Part shown: positions 5,056-26,718 of the stretch, in pieces
Numbering within the stretch: the stretch's first letter is position 1
Layout of the letters: every line of letters begins with the position of its first letter
Origin: Candidatus Electronema halotolerans
GTDB taxonomy: Bacteria; Desulfobacterota; Desulfobulbia; Desulfobulbales; Desulfobulbaceae
NCBI GenBank assembly: GCA_942493095.1
Contig: OW818675.1
Span: 510,001 to 542,000 of the forward strand
Direction of reading: 5' to 3'
DNA: 32,000 bases
Translations under genes and position numbers: made by a program
The notes under the pieces: generated by a model
Database searches by the model: none
Told to the model about the DNA's origin: nothing
The model's input: only the letters and a program-made list of their open reading frames with translations

Positions 5056-5131
5056 TCGGATAGATGAACAGCAGATTTCCGCACTCCAAAAATATGATCG
5101 CTCCTCAGCAAAGAACAGGGCTGGAGACGCT
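5056..5131 (-). pseudogene. degenerate copy of the RBS plus first ~15 codons of the ABC ATPase gene
   Basis: Aligns with 1874-1949, including a 26-nt identical core ATGATCGCTCCTCAGCAAAGAACAG. On the minus strand it reads GAGGAGCGATCATA TTT TTG GAG TGC GGA AAT CTG CTG TTC ATC TAT CCG AGG TGA, i.e. (I)FLECGNLLFIYPR*, against MFLQCSNLCFMYPNS in the real gene. The ATG has become ATA and there is an early stop. Confidence 0.5.
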
Positions 5132-5254: not shown

Positions 5255-6256
5255 ATGCTCATCCTCGCCCTTGAAAGTTCCTGCGATGACACGGCGGCGG
5301 CAGTGCTGGCAGACGACCGGCAGGTGCTGGCCAACGTGATCAGCAGTCAGTTTGCCGTGCATGAAAAATACGGCGGCGTGGTTCCTGAACTGGCCTCGCG
5401 CTGCCATATTGAAGCGGTCTGGCCAGTGGCGCAGGAGGCCTTGGACAAGGCCGGAGTCAGCTTGACCGAGATCGGCCTGATTGCCGCCACCCAAGGGCCG
5501 GGACTGGTCGGCTGCCTGCTGGTCGGCTTCACCTTTGCCAAGTCCTTAGCCTTGGTGCGGCAGATACCCTGCGTGGGCGTGGATCATTTAGCCGGACACC
5601 TGTTAGCCATTCTTTTGGAAGATAAGAAACCAGAATTTCCCTACACCGCCTTGGTGGCATCCGGCGGCACCACCTCGCTCTTTGCGGTCAGCAGCCCGAC
5701 TGAATTCCGCCTGCTGGGCCGCACCCGCGACGATGCGGCAGGCGAGGCCTTTGACAAGACTGCCAAACTGCTCGGCTTGGGCTGTCCGGGCGGCCCGGCA
5801 GTGAGCAGGCTGGCTGAACAGGGCCGAGCTGATGCCTTTGCCTTTCCCCGCGCCCTGTCTGACGGCAGCGTGGATTTCAGCTTCAGCGGCCTGAAAACAG
5901 CAGTGGTCAATCAAGTCAACCAGTTCCGCCAAGCACATCAGCCTGTGCCGGTTGCAGACATCTGCGCTTCGTTTGAGCAGGCGGTTGCCGATGTTTTAGT
6001 GGATAAAACCATGCTTGCGGCAAGACGCTGCGGCTGCAGCCGGATTGCCCTTGGCGGCGGCGTGGCAGCCAACCGCAGGCTGAGAAAACTCATGGCCGCC
6101 CGCTGTGCCGAGGCAGGCTTGGCCTGCTTCCTGCCCTCGCCAATTTTTTGCACCGACAACGCAGCCATGATCGGCCTGGCCGGCTTTCATCAGTTTGCCG
6201 CTGGCAGGACGGTCGGCCCGGATGCGGACGCATTTTCCCGTTCGCCGCTCAATTGA
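5255..6256 (+). CDS. tsaD: tRNA N6-adenosine threonylcarbamoyltransferase
   Basis: MLILALESSCDDTAAAV N-terminus, GPGLVGCLLVG, VDHLAGH metal-binding motif, GGVAAN. Length of 333 aa is typical. Confidence 0.95.
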   Translation: MLILALESSCDDTAAAVLADDRQVLANVISSQFAVHEKYGGVVPELASRCHIEAVWPVAQEALDKAGVSLTEIGLIAATQGPGLVGCLLVGFTFAKSLALVRQIPCVGVDHLAGHLLAILLEDKKPEFPYTALVASGGTTSLFAVSSPTEFRLLGRTRDDAAGEAFDKTAKLLGLGCPGGPAVSRLAEQGRADAFAFPRALSDGSVDFSFSGLKTAVVNQVNQFRQAHQPVPVADICASFEQAVADVLVDKTMLAARRCGCSRIALGGGVAANRRLRKLMAARCAEAGLACFLPSPIFCTDNAAMIGLAGFHQFAAGRTVGPDADAFSRSPLN

Positions 6257-6258
6257 CC

Positions 6259-6813
6259 ATGTTCCGCAAGCTGTCCCGTCTGCCACGATACTATCTGCTC
6301 CGCGTCAAGCGGCTGAAGGGCGATCCTGAATATTTAGCCCGTGGCTTTGCCTTTGGCGTGTTCATGGGAGTCCTGCCCTTGGTGCCGGTGCAGACCATCA
6401 TCCTCGTGCCGCTGACCATCCTTTTCCGGGTCAGCACCATTGCCGCCCTGATTGCCGGGACCTTGGTCAGCAATCCCCTGACCTTCATGCCCCAGTATTA
6501 TCTGACCTGGAAGATCGGCAACGCGATCGTGCCGGGCGAAGTCTCGTGGGAGCAGCTCAATGCGGTGCTGCACGAGGTGGCCCGCTTCATGGCTGAGGAA
6601 AGCCTGCTGCGCGGCATTGCTGACAGCCTGACTGCAATCAGCCGACTCGGTCTCAACACAGTTGCTGTTCTGCTCACTGGCGGGGCCATCATCGGCATTC
6701 CTGCCGGTCTGATCAGCTACTGCTTTGCCCGCAAATTCTTTTATGCTGTCCGCGAGCGGCGGCTGAAACGCCAGCGTCTGCTCATAGACAGACCCAGAAA
6801 GCAAGACAACTGA
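6259..6813 (+). CDS. DUF2062 family membrane protein (copy 1)
   Basis: In-frame ATG 3 nt after the tsaD stop. YYLLRVKRLKGDPEYLARGFAFGVFMGVLPLVPVQT followed by TM segments. 184 aa. Confidence 0.8.
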   Translation: MFRKLSRLPRYYLLRVKRLKGDPEYLARGFAFGVFMGVLPLVPVQTIILVPLTILFRVSTIAALIAGTLVSNPLTFMPQYYLTWKIGNAIVPGEVSWEQLNAVLHEVARFMAEESLLRGIADSLTAISRLGLNTVAVLLTGGAIIGIPAGLISYCFARKFFYAVRERRLKRQRLLIDRPRKQDN

Positions 6814-6817
6814 CTGT

Positions 6818-7372
6818 ATGGAAACTGTGCTCCGAACTGCCCTGCGCCTGCCGCGTCTGCCACGGTATTATTTTCTCCGGGTCAAGCGGATGAAAGGCGA
6901 CCCGGAATATTTAGCCCGCAGCTTCGCCTTTGGCGTGTTCATGGGAGTGCTGCCGCTGATGCCGGTGCAGACCATCATTCTGGTTCCGCTGACCATCCTC
7001 CTCCGGGTCAGCACCATCACCGCCATGCTGGCCGGATATGTGGTCAGCAATCCGTTGACCTTTGTCCCCCAGTATTATAGCTGCTGGAAATTAGGCAATG
7101 CCATCCTGCCAAGCTGGGTGAGCTGGGAGCAGATTCACGCCGCCTTGCAGATCATCATCAATCCAGCGCCACAGTCAGACCTGTTCCAGAGCACCATGCA
7201 CGGTTTGACCGCTCTGAGCAAGCTCGGCTTCAAGGCCATAGCCGTGATGGAAACCGGCGGCACGATCATCGGCCTGCCCATCGCCATTGTCAGCTATTTT
7301 CTTGCCCTCAGATTCTTTTTGACCGTCCGGCAGAAGCGGGCGGTCAAGCATCGTTTGGATAATCGCCGCTGA
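6818..7372 (+). CDS. DUF2062 family membrane protein (copy 2, tandem paralogue)
   Basis: YYFLRVKRMKGDPEYLARSFAFGVFMGVLPLMPVQT. Also 184 aa and collinear with copy 1. Confidence 0.8.
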   Translation: METVLRTALRLPRLPRYYFLRVKRMKGDPEYLARSFAFGVFMGVLPLMPVQTIILVPLTILLRVSTITAMLAGYVVSNPLTFVPQYYSCWKLGNAILPSWVSWEQIHAALQIIINPAPQSDLFQSTMHGLTALSKLGFKAIAVMETGGTIIGLPIAIVSYFLALRFFLTVRQKRAVKHRLDNRR

Positions 7373-22739: not shown

Positions 22740-22961
22740 ATGGCAAAAGCAGATGTGGAAAAATTGCTGGAAGCAGGCGGCAAGGATAAGAAGATCAAGG
22801 CAAAATATGATGTTCCGGCCACCAAGGAAGAGTTTGTCGCCTTGGCAGCGCAGGACGGCTACAACTTCACCGTGGAGGAGCTGGAAGCTGTGCTCAAAGA
22901 ATCCGGCGATGTCTTTGAAAAATACGGCAATCCGCCTAAACGGTCAATTTGGTGGACATAG
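22740..22961 (+). CDS. Nif11-domain small protein / possible Nif11-type leader peptide
   Basis: GGAGG RBS. ADVEKLLEAGGKDKKIKAKY...KEEFVALAAQDGYNFTVEELEAVLKE matches the Nif11 N-terminal domain pattern, followed by the 19-aa tail SGDVFEKYGNPPKRSIWWT. Confidence 0.7.
   Translation: MAKADVEKLLEAGGKDKKIKAKYDVPATKEEFVALAAQDGYNFTVEELEAVLKESGDVFEKYGNPPKRSIWWT
22855..22961 (+). repeat. direct repeat copy A (functional 3' end of the Nif11-like gene)
   Basis: Aligns without gaps to 23891-23997, differing at 10 of 107 nt. Confidence 0.85.
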
Positions 22962-22968
22962 AAAGACA

Positions 22969-23005
22969 AAAGAAGGATGCAAGTAATGCATCCTTCTTTT
23001 TGTTT
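22969..23005. terminator. Rho-independent (bidirectional) terminator
   Basis: AAAGAAGGATGCA (22969-22981), loop AGTAA, TGCATCCTTCTTT (22987-22999), then TTTGTTT. This is a 13-bp stem. An A/T-rich run on the other side also gives a U-tract for the minus strand. Confidence 0.7.
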
Positions 23006-23056
23006 GACAGGATAGGCAATCTAAATCATTAGATTGATTTTAGCTGATTGCCTTTT

Positions 23057-23599
23057 TTACATTGGAATGCAGAACAACCTCTGGTCGAACGATTCCTTGC
23101 CGAATATGTACCAAACACTTCCTGCTGCACTCAAGCAGATTTTATGCACATCGAATGACAATGTCAAAGAAAGATCAGCACCCGCCAATCCTACATTTGG
23201 GTGAAAACCAACAGTTACGTTATGACTGTCAAAATTGTATGATGTGCACCATACTTTGGCACCTGCAACAATAAGACACACTTTAAGCTCTGCTTGCCAG
23301 TCTGATGGCGTTCCGCATACCTTTAATTCTCCCCCTATTCCTACGATTTTATACAGAGAAACTTCAAATGGTTGGGTTTTGCAGTTGTCAACAGTTTTCA
23401 GTGCGCCAAGAACAGGCATACGAGCTGCTGCTGCACGAACCATAGGAGCTGCTGTGGCAGGCTCTGCCGCATCTCTGCTAATAGCAGAGAGAATCTGCTC
23501 TTTAAGCTTGTCAACTGGCATGTCAGCATGCGCTGCCATCATCTGCCAATCTTTCTCGCTAACATGAGAAGATACAGCTTGTAATGTATCCTTTTCCAT
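23057..23599 (-). CDS. orphan hypothetical protein (180 aa from the second ATG)
   Basis: GGAGGA lies 7 nt before ATG 23599; the track ORF starts at 23614. Ala-rich helical N-terminal third, beta-rich C-terminal part with 6 Cys. No family recognised. Confidence 0.6.
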   Translation of the reverse strand: MEKDTLQAVSSHVSEKDWQMMAAHADMPVDKLKEQILSAISRDAAEPATAAPMVRAAAARMPVLGALKTVDNCKTQPFEVSLYKIVGIGGELKVCGTPSDWQAELKVCLIVAGAKVWCTSYNFDSHNVTVGFHPNVGLAGADLSLTLSFDVHKICLSAAGSVWYIFGKESFDQRLFCIPM

Positions 23600-23659
23600 T
23601 TTTACATCCTCCATGTAATTTGTTAACTTCCATCCAAGATAGATGGAATAATTTTGTCC

Positions 23660-23686
23660 ATTATAATTTGGCTAAAAAAAAATCAA
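23660..23686 (-). promoter_or_regulatory. sigma-70-type promoter candidate for the cassette-1 gene
   Basis: On the minus strand: TTGATT (23686-23681), 15 nt spacer, TATAAT (23665-23660). The spacer is shorter than optimal. Confidence 0.3.
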
Positions 23687-23890
23687 TAAAAAAGTATTGT
23701 TAGGAATAATTATTATTCTTGAAAGTAGGCAAAAATATAGTGTTGCAGGTTTCCGAAGCAGAGTGTTTTAAGGAGTGGTTCGCATTCAATTTGCTAATTT
23801 TACTTGCTTAATATTGGCACAGGCTAACGTAACAGAAAGTTGCAACACTATAGGTTCAGTTTATTAAAAAAAATGAAGAATGGAATAGGC

Positions 23891-23997
23891 ACGGCTACAA
23901 CTTCACCGTAGAGGAGCTGGAAGCGGTGCTCAAAGAATCCGGCGATGTCTTTGAAAAATACGGCAATCCGCCCAAGCGTTCCATCTGGTGGACCTGA
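23891..23997 (+). pseudogene. start-less second copy of the last 34 codons plus stop of a Nif11-like gene (repeat copy B)
   Basis: Encodes GYNFTVEELEAVLKESGDVFEKYGNPPKRSIWWT*, identical to copy A. The in-frame upstream sequence runs back to TAG at 23851-23853 with no ATG or GTG. Confidence 0.7.
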
Positions 23998-24026: not shown

Positions 24027-25133
24027 TCATCTTGCCGGGATGCTCCGGGATGCCTTGACCGCCGCTGCTGCCGCATCATGAAACCAAGGCCGGAACTGGC
24101 GGATTCTGCTGTTCTCCCGGCTCGGATGAACCCGGTTGCTGAGGAGAATGACAATCAGCTCCTGCTCCGGGTCGATCCAGAATGAAGTGCCGGTGAAGCC
24201 CAGATGACCGACACTTTGGGCGGAGAAATGCCTGCCGCTGCTGGATGAGCCGGGCGTGGGTCTGTCAAAGCCGAGACACCAGGTCTGGCCGGAGAGCTGC
24301 GGCTGCAAGCCTTGGGACAGAAAAGCCGCCCAAGAGCTGGCCACGGCTTCCCCTCTCTCACCCTGCCAATTATCCAAAATCACCCCGCAGAGCTGCAACA
24401 CCCCGCTGACTGTGCCGAACAATCCCGCATGACCGGCAAGGCCGTTTACGAGCCAGCAATGCTCATCATGCACCTCACCCCGCATCATCCTGCCCCGCCA
24501 TGAGCACTGCTCTGTGGCGGCGCAGTTCTGCCTCTGCTCCACGCTGACCTGACAGAGCAGCTCTTTTCCCAGCCCCAGCGGCCCCGCAATCCGCTCCTGA
24601 AAATTGGCGGCCAAATCCTTGTCAGTCAACTCCTCCGCTATCCACCCCAGCAGAATGAAGCCAAGATCGCTGTACAAACAGCGGCTCTCCGGCGCATAGG
24701 CCATTGGCTCGTTGAGAATGAGACGAAGCAACCGCGCCTTGTGGTCCGTTTTTTGCACCGGCGCAAAGGTCTTGAACCACGGCTGATAAGCGGCCAGCCC
24801 GGATGAATGCGAGAGCAGCCTGCGCAGCGTGATCTGCTGTTTGTCCGGCGGCACATCAGGCAGCAGATCAGCCAGCCTGTCTTCCAGCCGGAGCCGCCCT
24901 TCCGCAAAAAAATCGTAGAAAAGCAAGGTGGTCGAAAGGGCCTTGCTCAACGAGGCCAGATCAAACAGGGTGGCCGCCGTCACCAGGGACTGGTCGCGGC
25001 TGTCCATGACTCCGGCCCACGCTGTCCACGTCTGCCGGGCCGGGCCAGTGCCGCAGGCGACTGCCGCTGCCGCGCCGGGAAAAACCTGTTCGGCAAGCCC
25101 CTGCCGCAGGAGCCGCTGTAGTGTCTGGATCAT
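24027..25133 (-). CDS. beta-lactamase-family serine hydrolase (class C / esterase / PBP-like)
   Basis: SLSKAL (SxxK), YSDLGF (YxN-like) and GHLGFTGTSFW (K/H-T/S-G box). Confidence 0.85.
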   Translation of the reverse strand: MIQTLQRLLRQGLAEQVFPGAAAAVACGTGPARQTWTAWAGVMDSRDQSLVTAATLFDLASLSKALSTTLLFYDFFAEGRLRLEDRLADLLPDVPPDKQQITLRRLLSHSSGLAAYQPWFKTFAPVQKTDHKARLLRLILNEPMAYAPESRCLYSDLGFILLGWIAEELTDKDLAANFQERIAGPLGLGKELLCQVSVEQRQNCAATEQCSWRGRMMRGEVHDEHCWLVNGLAGHAGLFGTVSGVLQLCGVILDNWQGERGEAVASSWAAFLSQGLQPQLSGQTWCLGFDRPTPGSSSSGRHFSAQSVGHLGFTGTSFWIDPEQELIVILLSNRVHPSRENSRIRQFRPWFHDAAAAAVKASRSIPAR

Positions 25134-25153: not shown

Positions 25154-25298
25154 TGTTGAAAACTTGTTGAAAACCTGTTGATAACTTGTTGATAACTTCC
25201 TGCCGCCGCTGCCGCCCGCCGAGTTATCAACAAGTTATTAACAAAGTTATCAACACCTCTTTTACTGAAAAACAAGCAGGTTGCGTTAGTTTTCAACA
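25154..25298. repeat. array of eight 11-bp iteron-like units, 4 forward and 4 inverted, around a GC-rich spacer
   Basis: Forward units: TGTTGAAAACT (25154), TGTTGAAAACC (25165), TGTTGATAACT (25176), TGTTGATAACT (25187). The spacer is tcctgccgccgctgccgcccgccg. Inverted units: AGTTATCAACA (25222), AGTTATTAACA (25233), AGTTATCAACA (25245), AGTTTTCAACA (25288). TTATCAACA matches the DnaA-box consensus TTATCCACA at 8 of 9. A tract that is 27/30 A+T follows at 25321-25350. Confidence 0.8.
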
Positions 25299-25363: not shown

Positions 25364-25453
25364 CTGTGGAAAACTGCGTCATAAAAAAAGCCCGTGACCA
25401 AAAAGATCACGGGCTGCGAACATCTTTGAACGAAAAACGGTCAGCGGCTCACC
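25364..25453. repeat. direct repeat R1 (distal copy of the dsrH-like 3' end and terminator region)
   Basis: Aligns to 26458-26549 with a few substitutions and 1-3-nt indels, roughly nine-tenths identical by eye. Confidence 0.75.
25383..25415 (-). terminator. Rho-independent terminator (within R1)
   Basis: On the minus strand: AGCCCGTGA, loop, TCACGGGCT, followed by TTTTTTT. Confidence 0.7.
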
Positions 25454-26457
25454 GTAGCTGAAAAAAAGAGGCGGAAAACTGGAAACTGCGTTGGAGATTC
25501 AAATTATCGTTATATATCAAACAGATTCAGTTGAACAAAACCGGGTTCTTTCAAATTGATTTTTTGCTGGGCAGACTCACCTTCTTTCAAACCGCCTAAT
25601 CTGTTGATATTTTTTACTATTGTCGGGACACAATATTCGGATGCGCTTTCTTTTACTTGGAGGGTATTAAAACGAAGCACTCTCCAGCCTTCTGTTTTCA
25701 AATTATTGTCACGAACATTATCTTTTGCGGCTTGTTGACGATTTGCGTGCCAAAAGTCTCCGTCTGTTTCAACGTCAATCTTTCCTGATTGACAATATAT
25801 TGCAAAATCCAAAGCATAGTGTCTGTTATTAACATTTACAAACTCCTGACGTTCCGCATTTATCTGCAACCGTTTAAATTCTGACCATAAACGGTCTTCA
25901 AGGGGACTTGCATCGAAAAGATCATTTATTTCAACTGCTGTGACAAACTTTTCCCATGTTGTCGAAATGAACACTAATCGTCTGTAACGCCTGCTGAGAA
26001 TAGGTTTTGGTAAACGTTTAAGGGGCGGATCGATAAAAATTTGGTAATACCTTTTCCTGCTTTTTACATTAGCAGGTTCATCAGGAAAAAGCTGCCATCT
26101 GTAAGCCTTTTTGATATCTAATATTTTCGCGTAATAGTTTATCGCATAAGCATCTTTGCCAAAGACTTTCGTCATGTAAAACGCTATAAAGCAAGGAGGC
26201 CAACGCTTTTTCAGCCATTTCTCAACGCTGCTGACAGGAATCCGATACCAATGCTTTTCATTCACAATGGAAAAATCATGCAAATTGTTAATTATTGCCA
26301 CAAGCACTTCGTTATGCAAATCGTTATCCATTACAACAGCTTCAAATGAAGGCCTTCAACAGCAGCCAAGTTAATCCGCGCATCTGCCCCCTCCACGCGA
26401 GAACTTCAGCACTTTCCGAAAAATCATCCAAGGCATGGAATTTCAGACAGTACCAAT
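25454..26457. mobile_element. low-GC single-gene insertion ('cassette 2') between R1 and R2
   Basis: Markedly AT-rich compared with the flanks and carries only the DUF559-type nuclease gene. No recombinase gene is present. Confidence 0.45.
25510..26331 (-). CDS. DUF559 / Vsr-like restriction-endonuclease-fold protein with an uncharacterised N-terminal domain
   Basis: The C-terminus YALDFAIYCQSGKIDVETDGDFWHANRQQAAKDNVRDNNLKTEGWRVLRF is the classic DUF559 pattern (D...E.DG..H....D..R...L...GW.VLRF). The N-terminal ~150 aa (HWYRIPV..., FIAFYMTK..., RRLVFISTTW) is not assigned. Confidence 0.75.
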   Translation of the reverse strand: MDNDLHNEVLVAIINNLHDFSIVNEKHWYRIPVSSVEKWLKKRWPPCFIAFYMTKVFGKDAYAINYYAKILDIKKAYRWQLFPDEPANVKSRKRYYQIFIDPPLKRLPKPILSRRYRRLVFISTTWEKFVTAVEINDLFDASPLEDRLWSEFKRLQINAERQEFVNVNNRHYALDFAIYCQSGKIDVETDGDFWHANRQQAAKDNVRDNNLKTEGWRVLRFNTLQVKESASEYCVPTIVKNINRLGGLKEGESAQQKINLKEPGFVQLNLFDI

Positions 26458-26549
26458 CTGTGAAAAACTGCGCCATGAAAAAAGCCCGTGACCAGAAGAT
26501 CACGGGCTGCGAAACATCTCTGAACGAAAAAGCTCGTCAGCGGCTCACC
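26458..26549. repeat. direct repeat R2 (proximal copy, containing the dsrH-like stop codon and operon terminator)
   Basis: See R1. The repeat ends at GGTGAGCCG, which contains the TGA stop at 26545-26547. Confidence 0.75.
26478..26508 (-). terminator. Rho-independent terminator of the tusA-dsrEFH operon (within R2)
   Basis: On the minus strand: AGCCCGTGA, loop, TCACGGGCT, followed by TTTTTT. Confidence 0.7.
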
Positions 26550-26718
26550 ACCAGCAGACAGTCTTGTCAGCGGCGAAAATCTTGCTCACCAGCTCATCGT
26601 AGTTGGGATTTTCCTCATAGAGACGGAATTCATCCGCCTCCCGGTCACGGTTGAGAATCTCAACCAAGGTCGTGACCACCTCGTTCGGCTCGGAACGATA
26701 CACTTGCAGCATTTTCAT
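26545..26718 (-). CDS. 57-aa DsrH/TusB-like mini-protein
   Basis: Below the ORF-track cut-off. GGAGGAG RBS lies 10 nt upstream. MKMLQVYRSEPNEVVTTLVEIL... and ...NYDELVSKIFAADKTVCWW resemble the N- and C-terminal ends of DsrH/TusB with the middle missing. Alignment is by eye. Confidence 0.45.
   Translation of the reverse strand: MKMLQVYRSEPNEVVTTLVEILNRDREADEFRLYEENPNYDELVSKIFAADKTVCWW

Follow-up and report, generated by a model that had tools for sequence, protein, structure and literature searches.

The C-terminal displacement of rhs genes (Jackson et al. 2009) is among the closest described counterparts of the locus reported here, and a two-step circle model has been proposed for the displacement of rhs tips (PMC2935791). 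At rhs loci, and likewise where CdiA or other polymorphic toxins have orphan tips, a silent 3’ fragment lies behind the intact gene and still includes a piece of the conserved upstream sequence, so that a direct repeat results; the end now attached to the gene was acquired laterally, as was the gene in between, whereas the dissociated fragment is the former native end. The exchange was proposed to proceed by recombinase-free homologous recombination with a small circle in which a core fragment is combined with a tip and the genes in between, and the core fragments vary in length (PMC2935791). Our locus shares this architecture and yet departs from it in four respects. In place of a toxin, what is targeted is a Nif11-domain protein of 73 aa from a nif-associated cluster; the new tip encodes an identical peptide and brings no diversification, whereas rhs swaps different toxin tips; the passenger is a convergent orphan gene with no PADLOC or Pfam match instead of an immunity gene; and the homologous fragment measures only 82-107 nt.

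A second counterpart is the displacement of T6SS effector and immunity genes by homology-facilitated illegitimate recombination (HFIR) in Vibrio cholerae, where a conserved region serves as a one-sided anchor, the other end is joined illegitimately and the old 3’ end is shifted back together with the downstream gene, all with no integrase (PMC5361080). In the present uncultured cable bacterium, by contrast, recipient sequence ends up in two copies instead of being lost, and the anchoring stretch is very short. Elements such as e14 and phage 21 in icd, or ICESt1 in fda and the CIMEs, provide the gene that they enter with a mostly synonymous 3’ end, and in icd the original C-terminal fragment becomes a pseudogene, icdC, on the far side, excision recombining the two ends into a chimera (PMC13626634). 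However, the e14 prophage, 15 kb in length, encodes its own integrase and has a fixed att core, while the present insert is 1 kb long, holds one gene and encodes no recombinase; furthermore, one of its junctions is non-homologous and a second occurrence in another lineage (L007) has other repeat boundaries. The topology is identical to that of Campbell-type insertion-duplication, as in suicide-plasmid integration or the translocatable units of IS26, in which one crossover takes in a whole circle and leaves a direct repeat, but the event here is a natural one and its circle would lack a replicon, an IS or a selectable marker. Integron gene cassettes are also circular, of ~1 kb, with a single gene added at a fixed place; unlike them, the present insert has a cargo with its own promoter region, its repeat is the end of a host gene, and no IntI was seen in the window, by which we mean the whole 32,000-nucleotide stretch of Candidatus Electronema halotolerans DNA that was analysed.

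The target is a Nif11-like gene (22740..22961, forward strand; 73 aa, PF07862, E 5e-14), which at 80 Desulfobulbales loci closes the conserved cluster nifB-like / fdx / GNAT / HEPN / p99 / Nif11. On the far side of the insert the host flank resumes with a beta-lactamase-family serine hydrolase gene (24027..25133, reverse strand; PF00144, E 1e-53). A preliminary description of this DNA spoke of a low-GC insertion of 0.93 kb, and the computed values agree with it: the 929 bp of 22962-23890 have a GC content of 0.390 as compared to 0.547 for the window, and the GC3 of the inserted gene is 0.376, compared to 0.58-0.76 in the neighbouring genes.

The insert is flanked by a 107-nt direct repeat, whose copy A (22855..22961, forward strand; attL-like) is the end of the Nif11-like gene and whose copy B (23891..23997, forward strand; attR-like) is contiguous with the native downstream flank. 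The repeat search returned the pair as 22855-22957 / 23891-23993, with 93% identity and a spacing of 1036, as one of just five families of repeats with a length of 30 nt or more across the 32-kb window. Elsewhere in the window, a DUF559 gene after p57 is bracketed by duplicated gene ends, and so is a two-gene block before an ABC ATPase gene. Homology between A and B begins at 22855/23891, the preceding codon being GAC in A and CAC in B, and stops at the stop codon. Read codon by codon in the frame of the gene at 22740-22961, the copies are just as first described: the differences GTG/GTA, GCT/GCG, CCT/CCC, AAA/AAG, CGG/CGT, TCA/TCC, ATT/ATC and ACA/ACC are all eight at the third position and synonymous, the stop codon is TAG in A and TGA in B, and both copies translate into the same 34-aa peptide, GYNFTVEELEAVLKESGDVFEKYGNPPKRSIWWT. 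It also proved correct that copy B has no start codon and that a TAG lies in frame at 23851. As the synonymous share of single-base changes in these 34 codons is 21.6%, the probability of eight out of eight by chance is ~5e-6, and simulation yielded this outcome in 0 of 200,000 trials.

On the basis of this pattern the preliminary description held that the two copies evolved apart as coding sequence, which stands for the last eight codons but not for the first 82 nt, as these are host-like in both copies. The differences are clustered, affecting six of the six degenerate codons among the last eight codons versus two of 26 earlier (Fisher p = 3e-5), and the two groups are set apart by 47 nt of perfect identity (22890..22936, forward strand, equal to 23926-23972). 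One of the earlier differences, GCT/GCG, is a strain polymorphism, the GCG of copy B occurring also in the related contig L091. Since only the last eight codons have diverged and the preceding 82 nt are host-like in both, each copy is a recombinant, neither purely ‘element’ nor purely ‘host’; copy A consists of a host-type left part, the identical core and a foreign right part.

An empty site, with the Nif11-like gene followed directly by the serine hydrolase gene, had been suggested as something to look for in relatives, and six related contigs (85-99.8% identical) contain it: L003 and L091 (97.7-99.8%), L004, and L106-L108 (85-92%). All have one Nif11 3’ end, with the hydrolase gene 26 bp after the stop, and this single copy corresponds to the left part of copy A plus the right part of copy B. 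The right part of B and its downstream flank are identical in L003, L091 and L004, while L106-L108 carry one synonymous change (ACT for ACC); copy B as a whole differs from L003 or L091 at two positions only, which is within strain-level divergence. As the single copy of the empty sites matches copy B on the right, copy B is the displaced original Nif11 end, and as the sister-species contigs L106-L108, at 88-90% identity, already have the B-type end, the empty state is ancestral. The other end is of a different kind: 22937..22961 (forward strand; CCT AAA CGG TCA ATT TGG TGG ACA TAG) encodes the native peptide with six of six degenerate codons changed and is unlike every native version compared (L001-L005, L091, L106-L108, and the Electronema species L011-L016 and L074). 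The foreign part of copy A is confined to the last 25 nt, and the Nif11-like gene, host up to 22936 and then foreign for its last eight codons and TAG, is predicted to be an intact and functional chimera. That DNA was inserted here, and which of the two ends is foreign and which native, can be read directly from these comparisons.

The foreign block continues with a hairpin (22968..23000), found by the inverted-repeat search and the terminator scan, whose perfect 14-bp stem has A/T runs on both sides and lies between convergent genes; it is a predicted bidirectional terminator. The insert has one real ORF, the cargo gene GCAAIG_02485 (23057..23599, reverse strand), annotated as a hypothetical protein of Ca. 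Electronema halotolerans, and its length of 180 aa follows from the ATG at 23599, which a GGAGGA Shine-Dalgarno sequence and the homologues favour although the ORF reaches 23614. The protein is predicted to fold into an N-terminal three-helix bundle followed by a Cys-rich all-beta domain (AF2 pLDDT 83, pTM 0.78); the sequence had no match in Pfam, PADLOC or NCBIfam, nor did the AF2 model in PDB or BFVD by Foldseek. A search of 5.8 billion clusters yielded no more than three others (the 90%-identity clusters P0002, P0003 and P0065) with at least 45% identity to the cargo; a word-indexed protein search gave three clusters with the single cargo protein and seven with a profile, and the family profile search gave 62 representatives. 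Some members of the family are fused to a lipoxygenase domain and others to a ricin-B-like domain (the latter below the Pfam cut-off), fusions that are the sole hints of what the cargo may do. Distant members (L099 and L100) reside in ordinary chromosomal contexts with no Nif11 nearby, and a scan of JGI metagenome contigs for further cargo loci returned only L007, already known. Carriage on a phage or plasmid was rejected, since the cargo had no tblastn match in 50,697 records of phages and 72,556 of plasmids, nor any in IMG/VR.

Upstream of the cargo gene lies its AT-rich 5’ and promoter region (23600..23741, reverse strand; GC 0.29-0.34), and beyond it a 117-nt segment (23736..23852) with an 18-nt inverted repeat at its ends (TATAGTGTTGCAGGTTTC / GAAAGTTGCAACACTATA), which was detected by the repeat search and has a DNA fold z of -2.5. 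The inverted repeat occurs at these two sites only in the window, 0.06 being expected, and it is internal rather than terminal to the insert; a MITE was considered and rejected, as neither the window nor 105 loci hold further copies. No Nif11-end remnant of significance was found within the AT-rich spacer 23600-23890 (score 28, null 24). The insert had been described as one gene long with no integrase, and indeed Pfam, PADLOC and NCBIfam revealed no integrase, transposase or other recombinase domain in it, nor was a recombinase domain present in the proteins scanned (the ORFs adjoining the insert and the larger ORFs elsewhere in the 32-kb window). As the insert ends carry no terminal inverted repeats and the window holds no tRNA gene, tmRNA gene or Rfam family, a dedicated mobile element was rejected. 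The same holds for a transposon, IS or MITE, given that the duplication is 107 nt long and diverged, not of the short target-site type. There is no evidence that the insert is an autonomous element.

It had also been suggested to look for the cassette in other contexts, and a homologous block was found in the corresponding position behind Nif11 in a further Electronema-like lineage (L006/L007). Positions 22932-23006 are 81% identical to the Nif11 end and hairpin of L006/L007/L008, the cargo gene is 76% identical in DNA and 74% in amino acids to its homologue in that lineage, and 23600-23741 aligns with the region upstream of the L007 homologue (local alignment score 94, null 46 +/- 8); the 150 nt of 23742-23890, which hold the inverted-repeat segment, have no counterpart in L007. 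The change of all six degenerate codons, the GC and GC3 values and this homology together indicate that 22937-23890 is foreign. Most simply, the replacement 3’ end is the natural neighbour of the cargo in the donor genome and not a dedicated attachment site. The first reading of this locus, in which incoming AT-rich DNA brought a replacement 3’ end and displaced the original, is thus supported by the empty sites, the foreign last 25 nt and the L006/L007 block.

The only close homologue of the cargo, in this different species, adjoins amtB. The L007 spacer that separates the cargo from amtB contains a Nif11 end that has decayed (AAC TCA CTC AAG TGT TCA ATT TTA TGG AAC TCA) and that continues colinearly (alignment score 55, null 23.7 +/- 3.9) into the native sequence that follows the Nif11 stop in the sister species L074, L011 and L014 (85-90% identical). 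As the end is decayed but colinear and these sister species are without the cargo, the same kind of displacement evidently occurred in the L007 lineage, next to another downstream host gene and with a repeat of at least 31 nt. The crossover took other positions in the two cases: at the last codon in L007, with a recognisable repeat of about 31 nt, and 25-72 nt before the stop in the window, with a repeat of 107 nt.

One junction of the insert is homologous and the other is not. The left one falls within the 47-nt identity and, judging from the alignment, the homologous crossover must be located in 22890-22936. At the right junction (23888..23893), between 23890 and 23891, foreign sequence ending in ...AATAGGC is joined to host ACGGCTAC at Nif11 codon 39, with only a 3-nt microhomology, AGG (compare ...GCAGG/ACGGC in copy A). 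A Logan short-read unitig (L098, from ERR9670067), built by a different assembler from a sediment sample that is probably the same as the genome's, equals window 22907-23955 at 100% and thereby confirms the inserted gene, the foreign end before it and the 23890/23891 joint after it; it is bounded by the 47-nt core at both ends, which is compatible with a circle or with the integrated form. The read sets ERR9670067 and ERR9669565 both equal the window at 100% and probably belong to the project on the BRK sediment sample (PMC10030654).

Based on these data, we favour, at about even confidence, a recent and strain-specific gain of ~0.95 kb of foreign DNA by 3’-end displacement, through a 1,036-bp circle and one crossover. 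The donor would be another cable-bacterium lineage, in which the orphan gene lies convergently just downstream of the Nif11-like gene, so that a single block would have brought the orphan gene together with its promoter region, the shared hairpin terminator and that lineage's own Nif11 end. This DNA would have entered as, or turned into, a 1,036-bp circle containing a fragment of the Nif11 3’ end, and a single homologous crossover in the 47-nt identical stretch, mediated by host machinery of the RecA type, would have inserted the whole circle in a Campbell-type insertion-duplication. The order expected of the product is an intact Nif11 gene whose last eight codons and stop are foreign yet synonymous, the terminator, the cargo, and the native end from codon 39 onwards, shunted downstream and silent beside its original flank. 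A single crossover with a circle yields exactly such a product, an insert between direct duplicates of which one junction lies in identity while the other is non-homologous. That a circle was the intermediate, that host recombination was needed and by which route the DNA was transferred are inferences. In principle, the 107-nt repeats, 47 nt of them perfect, could recombine again, excising the circle and restoring the empty site; neither a circular form nor an excision junction was observed.

Several features speak against the circle. The ‘element-left’ part (23891-23972) is nearly identical to the host (2 of 82 nt differ), while divergence in the ‘element-right’ part is ~30%. Had the circle come directly from a distant donor, divergence would be expected along its whole length, and the model therefore needs either an earlier passage through an E. 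halotolerans-like host, as in the two-step model of rhs, or a later homogenisation by gene conversion or recombination. In addition, the model does not account for how the 23890/23891 joint was first formed. Homology of 47-82 nt is near the lower limit for efficient RecA-dependent recombination.

The main rival is HFIR with a linear donor fragment, which we regard as possible though rather unlikely. The Nif11 3’ region would act as the one-sided homologous anchor, and the opposite end, which lies beyond the cargo promoter on its upstream side, would be joined by microhomology at codon 39 of the recipient Nif11, leaving the recipient end truncated. One homologous junction and one non-homologous junction with the AGG microhomology are what it predicts, and duplications as different as 107 nt in the window and at least 31 nt in L007 are what random illegitimate joints would give; moreover, the left flank is nearly identical to L003 and the GCG of copy B matches L091, compatible with a left side that came from the donor strain. 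T6SS effector displacement that leaves orphan genes and shifted 3’ ends was proposed to arise in this way (PMC5361080). The difficulty lies in the 82 nt of host-like sequence that are present twice, as one linear fragment and one recipient can yield them only with a mosaic donor or a later homogenisation. If the crossover took place upstream of codon 39, copy A is all donor and the donor is then a mosaic, host-like for 82 nt and 30% divergent thereafter; if it took place in the 47-nt core, the recipient 82-nt segment is needed twice, which a simple one-molecule event does not supply. HFIR events reported from the laboratory typically delete recipient DNA and do not duplicate it. The mismatches to L003 and L091 (0.2-1.7%) are spread over both flanks and do not tell the circle and HFIR apart.

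We consider it improbable that the insert is a non-autonomous integrative cassette, CIME-like or comparable to e14 and phage 21 at icd, mobilised by a recombinase encoded elsewhere in the genome, with the repeats as attL and attR and the 47-nt identity as the att core. An identical core between diverged arms would suit such a cassette, and so would the architecture of a 3’-end island, in which the gene is restored by a mostly synonymous end with a C-terminal pseudogene beyond, as in icd/icdC (PMC13626634). Yet neither the insert nor the scanned ORFs of the window encode a recombinase, and none of 80 related genomes has an integration at a duplicated Nif11 end. In L007 the repeat differs in extent and in crossover, the latter being at the last codon and not 25 nt before the stop. 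On the right the repeat simply ends at the stop codon, where the homology of the two genes ends, and on the left there is neither symmetry nor binding-site-like repeats.

An origin in situ, either from tandem Nif11 paralogues of which the second was truncated or from a local tandem duplication around a native cargo, the empty sites being secondary deletions, is very improbable and largely refuted. A deletion between the repeats would, it is true, yield exactly the single copy of L003, with A on the left and B on the right. However, tandem Nif11 paralogues or a second 3’ copy occur at 0 of 80 genome loci and in no metagenome contig other than the window and the decayed L007 remnant, and a search for remnants downstream of Nif11 in the 79 other genomes, among them the Electronema species L012, L015 and L017 with a different convergent low-GC gene at this place, was negative (z <=3.6, within null maxima). 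The contigs of the sister species (85-92%) are empty and have the B-type end, and copy B, although untranslatable, shows no decay beyond strain-level polymorphism, indicating that the structure is young. The cargo, too, is neither vertically conserved nor host-like in GC and GC3, and its only close homologue is found in a different species beside amtB. Least credible of all is an assembly artefact due to a strain mixture, for even though the genome is a metagenome-assembled one, built with Flye from a complex sediment sample (PMC10030654), and the short-read graph loops at the 47-nt core, a misjoin through a shared repeat would give one copy and not two, the 23890/23891 joint recurs at 100% identity in an independent short-read unitig that occurs in two read sets, and the long reads of the assembly are many times longer than the 1-kb unit.

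Returning to the favoured reading, a gain by circle and single crossover, we tentatively extend it, with less confidence, to the block ‘Nif11 end, terminator, orphan gene’ as a recombinase-free hitch-hiking cassette, and to similar insertion-duplication as perhaps a general and hitherto undescribed route by which cable bacteria gain single genes. Within this joint reading the extremely conserved 3’ end of the Nif11-like gene may serve as a portable homology arm, and the block may leave as a 1-kb circle through its flanking repeats and re-enter other strains or species by a single crossover. The extension is suggested by the finding that in two lineages, which differ in their host flanks, one cargo family has displaced the end of one and the same gene, and by the two further blocks of the window that are bracketed by duplicated gene ends.

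The events that place single orphan genes in bacterial genomes are rarely legible, whereas at this locus the two junctions can be read directly, as can the empty site, the exchange's polarity and the donor-type arrangement, and we rate the locus as a clean natural example of 3’-end displacement. The insertion was seen in one strain of a cable bacterium, and its target is a small gene of a nitrogen-fixation cluster. The evidence points to the host recombination system acting on under 110 nt at a conserved gene end, mobile-element machinery playing no part, and it extends ‘C-terminal displacement’, so far described from polymorphic toxin loci, to an ordinary gene of the housekeeping type, with no change to its protein. 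Should both the circle model and its recurrence prove true, conserved gene ends would be natural landing pads in uncultured filamentous cable bacteria, and the 107-nt repeats would make the gain of a gene reversible.

The 3' end of the Nif11-like gene (22740-22961, 73 aa, Pfam Nif11, E 5e-14) occurs twice in the window, as a direct repeat at 22855-22957 and 23891-23993 that is 93% identical and has its copies 1,036 bp apart; only four other families of repeats in the 32 kb reach 30 nt. The position and existence of this repeat had been reported in the preliminary description, together with the claim that its copies diverge by synonymous changes only, and this holds, as eight codons differ in the frame of 22740-22961 and 8/8 differences are third-position and synonymous. 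The stop codons are TAG in copy A, the end of the intact gene, and TGA in copy B, and both copies encode the peptide GYNFTVEELEAVLKESGDVFEKYGNPPKRSIWWT. As described before, copy B lacks a start codon and is preceded by an in-frame TAG at 23851; it is silent. Since synonymous changes make up 21.6% of the possible single-base changes in the repeat codons, 8/8 would be expected by chance with a probability of ~5e-6. The 929 bp between the copies have a GC content of 0.39 compared to 0.547 for the window, in agreement with the low-GC insertion noted earlier, and the GC3 of the gene inside it (the cargo) is 0.376 compared to 0.58-0.76 in the neighbouring genes. Beyond what had been noticed, the differences are clustered, with 6/6 degenerate codons among the last eight differing compared to 2/26 before them (Fisher p = 3e-5), and 47 nt of perfect identity (22890-22936) lie between the two groups of differing codons.

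Contigs of relatives were reached via the identical Nif11 protein or a neighbouring 57-aa protein, and six of them carry the empty site that the preliminary description had suggested looking for, i.e., the Nif11-like gene followed directly by the hydrolase gene. In each there is one repeat copy, and Nif11 is followed by 26 bp and then by the convergent beta-lactamase-family gene. The left flank of L003 is nearly identical to the window and its right flank is 97-98% identical, L091 shows 99.0% on the right and 97.7% on the left, L004 shows 92% and 85.5%, and the contigs of the sister species (L106-L108) show 88-90%. As the native gene end in 6/6 contigs reads CCC AAG CGT TCC ATC TGG TGG ACC (or ACT) TGA and is followed by the sequence found downstream of copy B, copy B is the original end of Nif11, with the empty state ancestral in this clade. 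Set against the single copy in L003 or L091, copy B has just two differences, which does not exceed the strain-level divergence of the flanks (0.2-1.7%). That copy B is untranslatable and yet undecayed implies that the insertion is recent.

The last 25 nt of copy A (CCT AAA CGG TCA ATT TGG TGG ACA TAG) are unlike every native version found. Directly after them lies a hairpin with a perfect 14-bp stem (22968-23000), followed by the convergent cargo gene (23057-23599), which encodes a hypothetical protein of 180 aa (GCAAIG_02485, Candidatus Electronema halotolerans) and has an AT-rich upstream region behind it. The whole block of gene end, hairpin, cargo and upstream region is homologous to a block in L006/L007/L008, loci of another Electronema-like species whose host genes have ~73% DNA identity to the window; there the cargo homologue (74% aa identity) lies convergent right after Nif11, past a TAG stop and the same hairpin. 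Most simply, the replacement gene end would be the natural neighbour of the cargo in its donor, which would account for its evolution as working coding sequence. The earlier proposal of incoming AT-rich DNA with a replacement 3' end is borne out by the foreign 25 nt and by the B-type end of the six empty contigs. L007 has no equivalent of the final 150 nt of the insert (23742-23890). The segment of 117 nt that these contain at the distal end of the insert (23736-23852) is bounded by an 18-nt inverted repeat (16/18 complementary), has a DNA fold z-score of -2.5 and has no further copies in the window or in 105 fetched loci; a regulatory site, a recombination structure or a relic are candidates for it.

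As the left junction lies inside the 47 nt of identity, it is a homologous exchange somewhere within them. At the right junction, between 23890 and 23891, AT-rich foreign sequence passes directly into the host Nif11 gene at its codon 39, and the joint has AGG alone in common with the equivalent position of copy A. In the coordinates of the gene this junction precedes the left one by 82 nt, so that this length of host-like sequence is present twice; within it the GCT/GCG difference is a polymorphism also seen in L091, and the GTG/GTA difference is private to copy B.

A second, older case is found in the L007 lineage, in which the cargo-amtB spacer holds AAC TCA CTC AAG TGT TCA ATT TTA TGG AAC TCA, the decayed last ten codons and stop of Nif11, located 176-250 nt upstream of the cargo start (L007 in reverse complement) and present also in L006. 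The remnant is colinear into the native post-Nif11-stop sequence of the sister species L074, L011 and L014, and then into amtB, with a local alignment score for remnant and continuation of 55 compared to a null of 23.7 +/- 3.9. As these sister species, 85-90% identical to L006, do not carry the cargo, the Nif11 gene end appears to have been displaced by the same cargo family in a further lineage. This event differs from that of the window in its downstream host gene, its shorter recognisable duplicate and its left junction at the last codon. Some 30% of the bases in the remnant have mutated, for the most part by C-to-T and G-to-A changes, and the adjacent downstream 11 nt are intact; the remnant could stem either from the host, as its displaced gene end, or from a copy brought in by the element.

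The cluster that ends with Nif11 (nifB-like radical-SAM protein, 2Fe-2S-type protein, GNAT, HEPN-like, 99-aa protein, Nif11) is kept in 80 Desulfobulbales genomes, the gene 3' of Nif11 varies between lineages, and the Nif11 3' end is a synteny breakpoint. Among close relatives whose Nif11 protein is identical (L001/L002/L005 compared with L003/L091 and L013/L074), the next gene is obg in one lineage, where homology to the window stops ~10 nt past the Nif11 stop codon; E. halotolerans and its sister species have the serine hydrolase in this place, and freshwater Electronema has amtB-glnB. In three other Electronema species (L012, L015 and L017, ~6300-7200 in each locus) a different convergent gene of lower GC, ~280 aa, lies between Nif11 and amtB, the spot occupied by the cargo in L007; no Nif11-end remnant is detectable in that region of the three loci, and insertions seem to have recurred in the Nif11-amtB spacer.

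To explain the insertion we give about an even chance to a circle and host recombination. A 1,036-bp circle bearing a Nif11 3' fragment would meet the chromosome, and a single crossover between the two, a Campbell-type insertion-duplication, would be expected to leave the insert flanked by a direct target duplication with one homologous and one non-homologous junction, as observed. In the model of Jackson et al. for rhs "C-terminal displacement", homologous recombination of a core fragment with the main gene excises a circle of core fragment, tip and intervening genes; one crossover then takes this circle up in another isolate, where the old tip is moved downstream (PMC2935791). The "left" homology of the circle is host-like and its "right" end is ~30% diverged, as would result from this two-step route if an E. 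halotolerans-like strain had earlier hosted the circle. Its strongest competitor, which we consider rather unlikely, is homology-facilitated illegitimate recombination with a linear fragment as the incoming DNA, a mechanism put forward for the displacement of T6SS effectors (PMC5361080). It explains the junction types and why the duplicate varies in length, yet the 82 host-like nt present twice would require a donor that is itself a mosaic, or homogenisation at a later stage. That a recombinase acted in trans, in a CIME-like or e14/icd-like manner, is improbable; no evidence supports it, no recombinase domain having been found among the window ORFs scanned, and the different boundaries of the window and L007 events argue against a site-specific recombinase. 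Duplication in situ, of a paralogue or in tandem, is highly improbable; the tandem Nif11 paralogues that had been considered beforehand are not seen, a second Nif11 end being present in 0/79 other genome loci. The genome of this cable bacterium is circular and comes from a brackish-sediment metagenome by Nanopore assembly and Illumina polishing (PMC10030654), and an assembly artefact is the least probable explanation of all, one of long-read assembly being ruled out since L098, a short-read unitig from an independent assembler, equals 22907-23955 exactly, non-homologous right junction included.

The cargo has no match in Pfam, NCBIfam or PADLOC, gave no match in searches of plasmids, phages and viral contigs, and is very rare, with only three other 90%-identity clusters (P0002, P0003, P0065) of at least 45% identity among 5.8 billion clusters; a profile search of 1.8 billion representatives gave 62 members, which are 160-185 aa long and have conserved cysteines. 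Its AlphaFold (AF2) model is confident (pLDDT 83, pTM 0.78) and predicts an N-terminal three-helix bundle and an antiparallel beta domain of eight to nine strands. As no structure in PDB or BFVD resembles this model, the Cys-rich domain of the cargo may represent an undescribed domain family. In P0021 and P0028, relatives of the cargo, this domain is joined N-terminally to a further one, in one protein a lipoxygenase domain (803 aa, Pfam E 8e-10) and in the other a ricin-B-like lectin region (312 aa, E 1e-4, slightly short of the Pfam cut-off); these fusions hint, as a speculation, at a binding or targeting module and not an enzyme.

The window has a single further strong low-GC island, with a DUF559/Vsr-like endonuclease gene (25510-26331, minus strand, 273 aa, GC3 0.354), which has a weak homing-endonuclease match. 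It is bracketed by a 93-nt direct repeat (25364-25453 and 26458-26549, 88% identical) that begins 2 nt before the stop of the upstream 57-aa gene (26545-26718, minus strand) and takes in its terminator hairpin, and the unit of 1,094 bp is near the 1,036 bp of the Nif11 case. Relatives without the DUF559 gene (L103-L105) have a single terminator, but a different gene downstream. As island and both repeats are common to L101, L091 and L106-L108 (sister species), the island is older than the Nif11 insertion. A third pair, a 69-nt direct repeat (1876-1944 and 5058-5126, 81% identical), brackets a 3.2-kb block of two genes, for a 429-aa protein and a GCS2-like 448-aa protein. Its upstream copy (minus strand) duplicates, in decayed form, the ribosome-binding site and the initial 13 codons of the ABC ATPase gene 1278-1913, with the translations IFLECGNLLFIYPR* and MFLQCSNLCFMYPN, and here the duplicated gene end is the 5' end. 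Three blocks with duplicated gene ends in 32 kb are suggestive. A further direct repeat of 300 nt (6271-6570 and 6848-7147, 78% identical) belongs to two adjacent same-strand ORFs, 6148-6813 and 6818-7372, which resemble ordinary tandem paralogues. Between the hydrolase gene and the DUF559 island, 25154-25298 holds eight DnaA-box-like 9-mers (TTATCAACA, at most 1 mismatch) in both orientations, the window having 15 such sites compared to 3.7 expected; this cluster is conserved in the relative L101 and may serve to bind or titrate DnaA or belong to an origin; no dnaA gene was recognised in those ORFs of the window that were scanned.

The Nif11 case works like the 3'-end displacement of rhs, CdiA and T6SS genes and resembles e14/icd-type integration in look, yet it is a member of neither group. 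Since the Nif11 tip is unchanged and an immunity gene is absent, it differs from polymorphic-toxin systems, and unlike integrative islands, which are defined by an integrase and a fixed att core, the insert has neither. We regard it as a recombinase-free 3'-end displacement that affects an ordinary gene and brings an unrelated passenger with it. Its worth lies in its clarity, as the empty site, the polarity, both junctions, the donor-type arrangement and a second event are directly legible, and it suggests that the displacement process recurs in this lineage.
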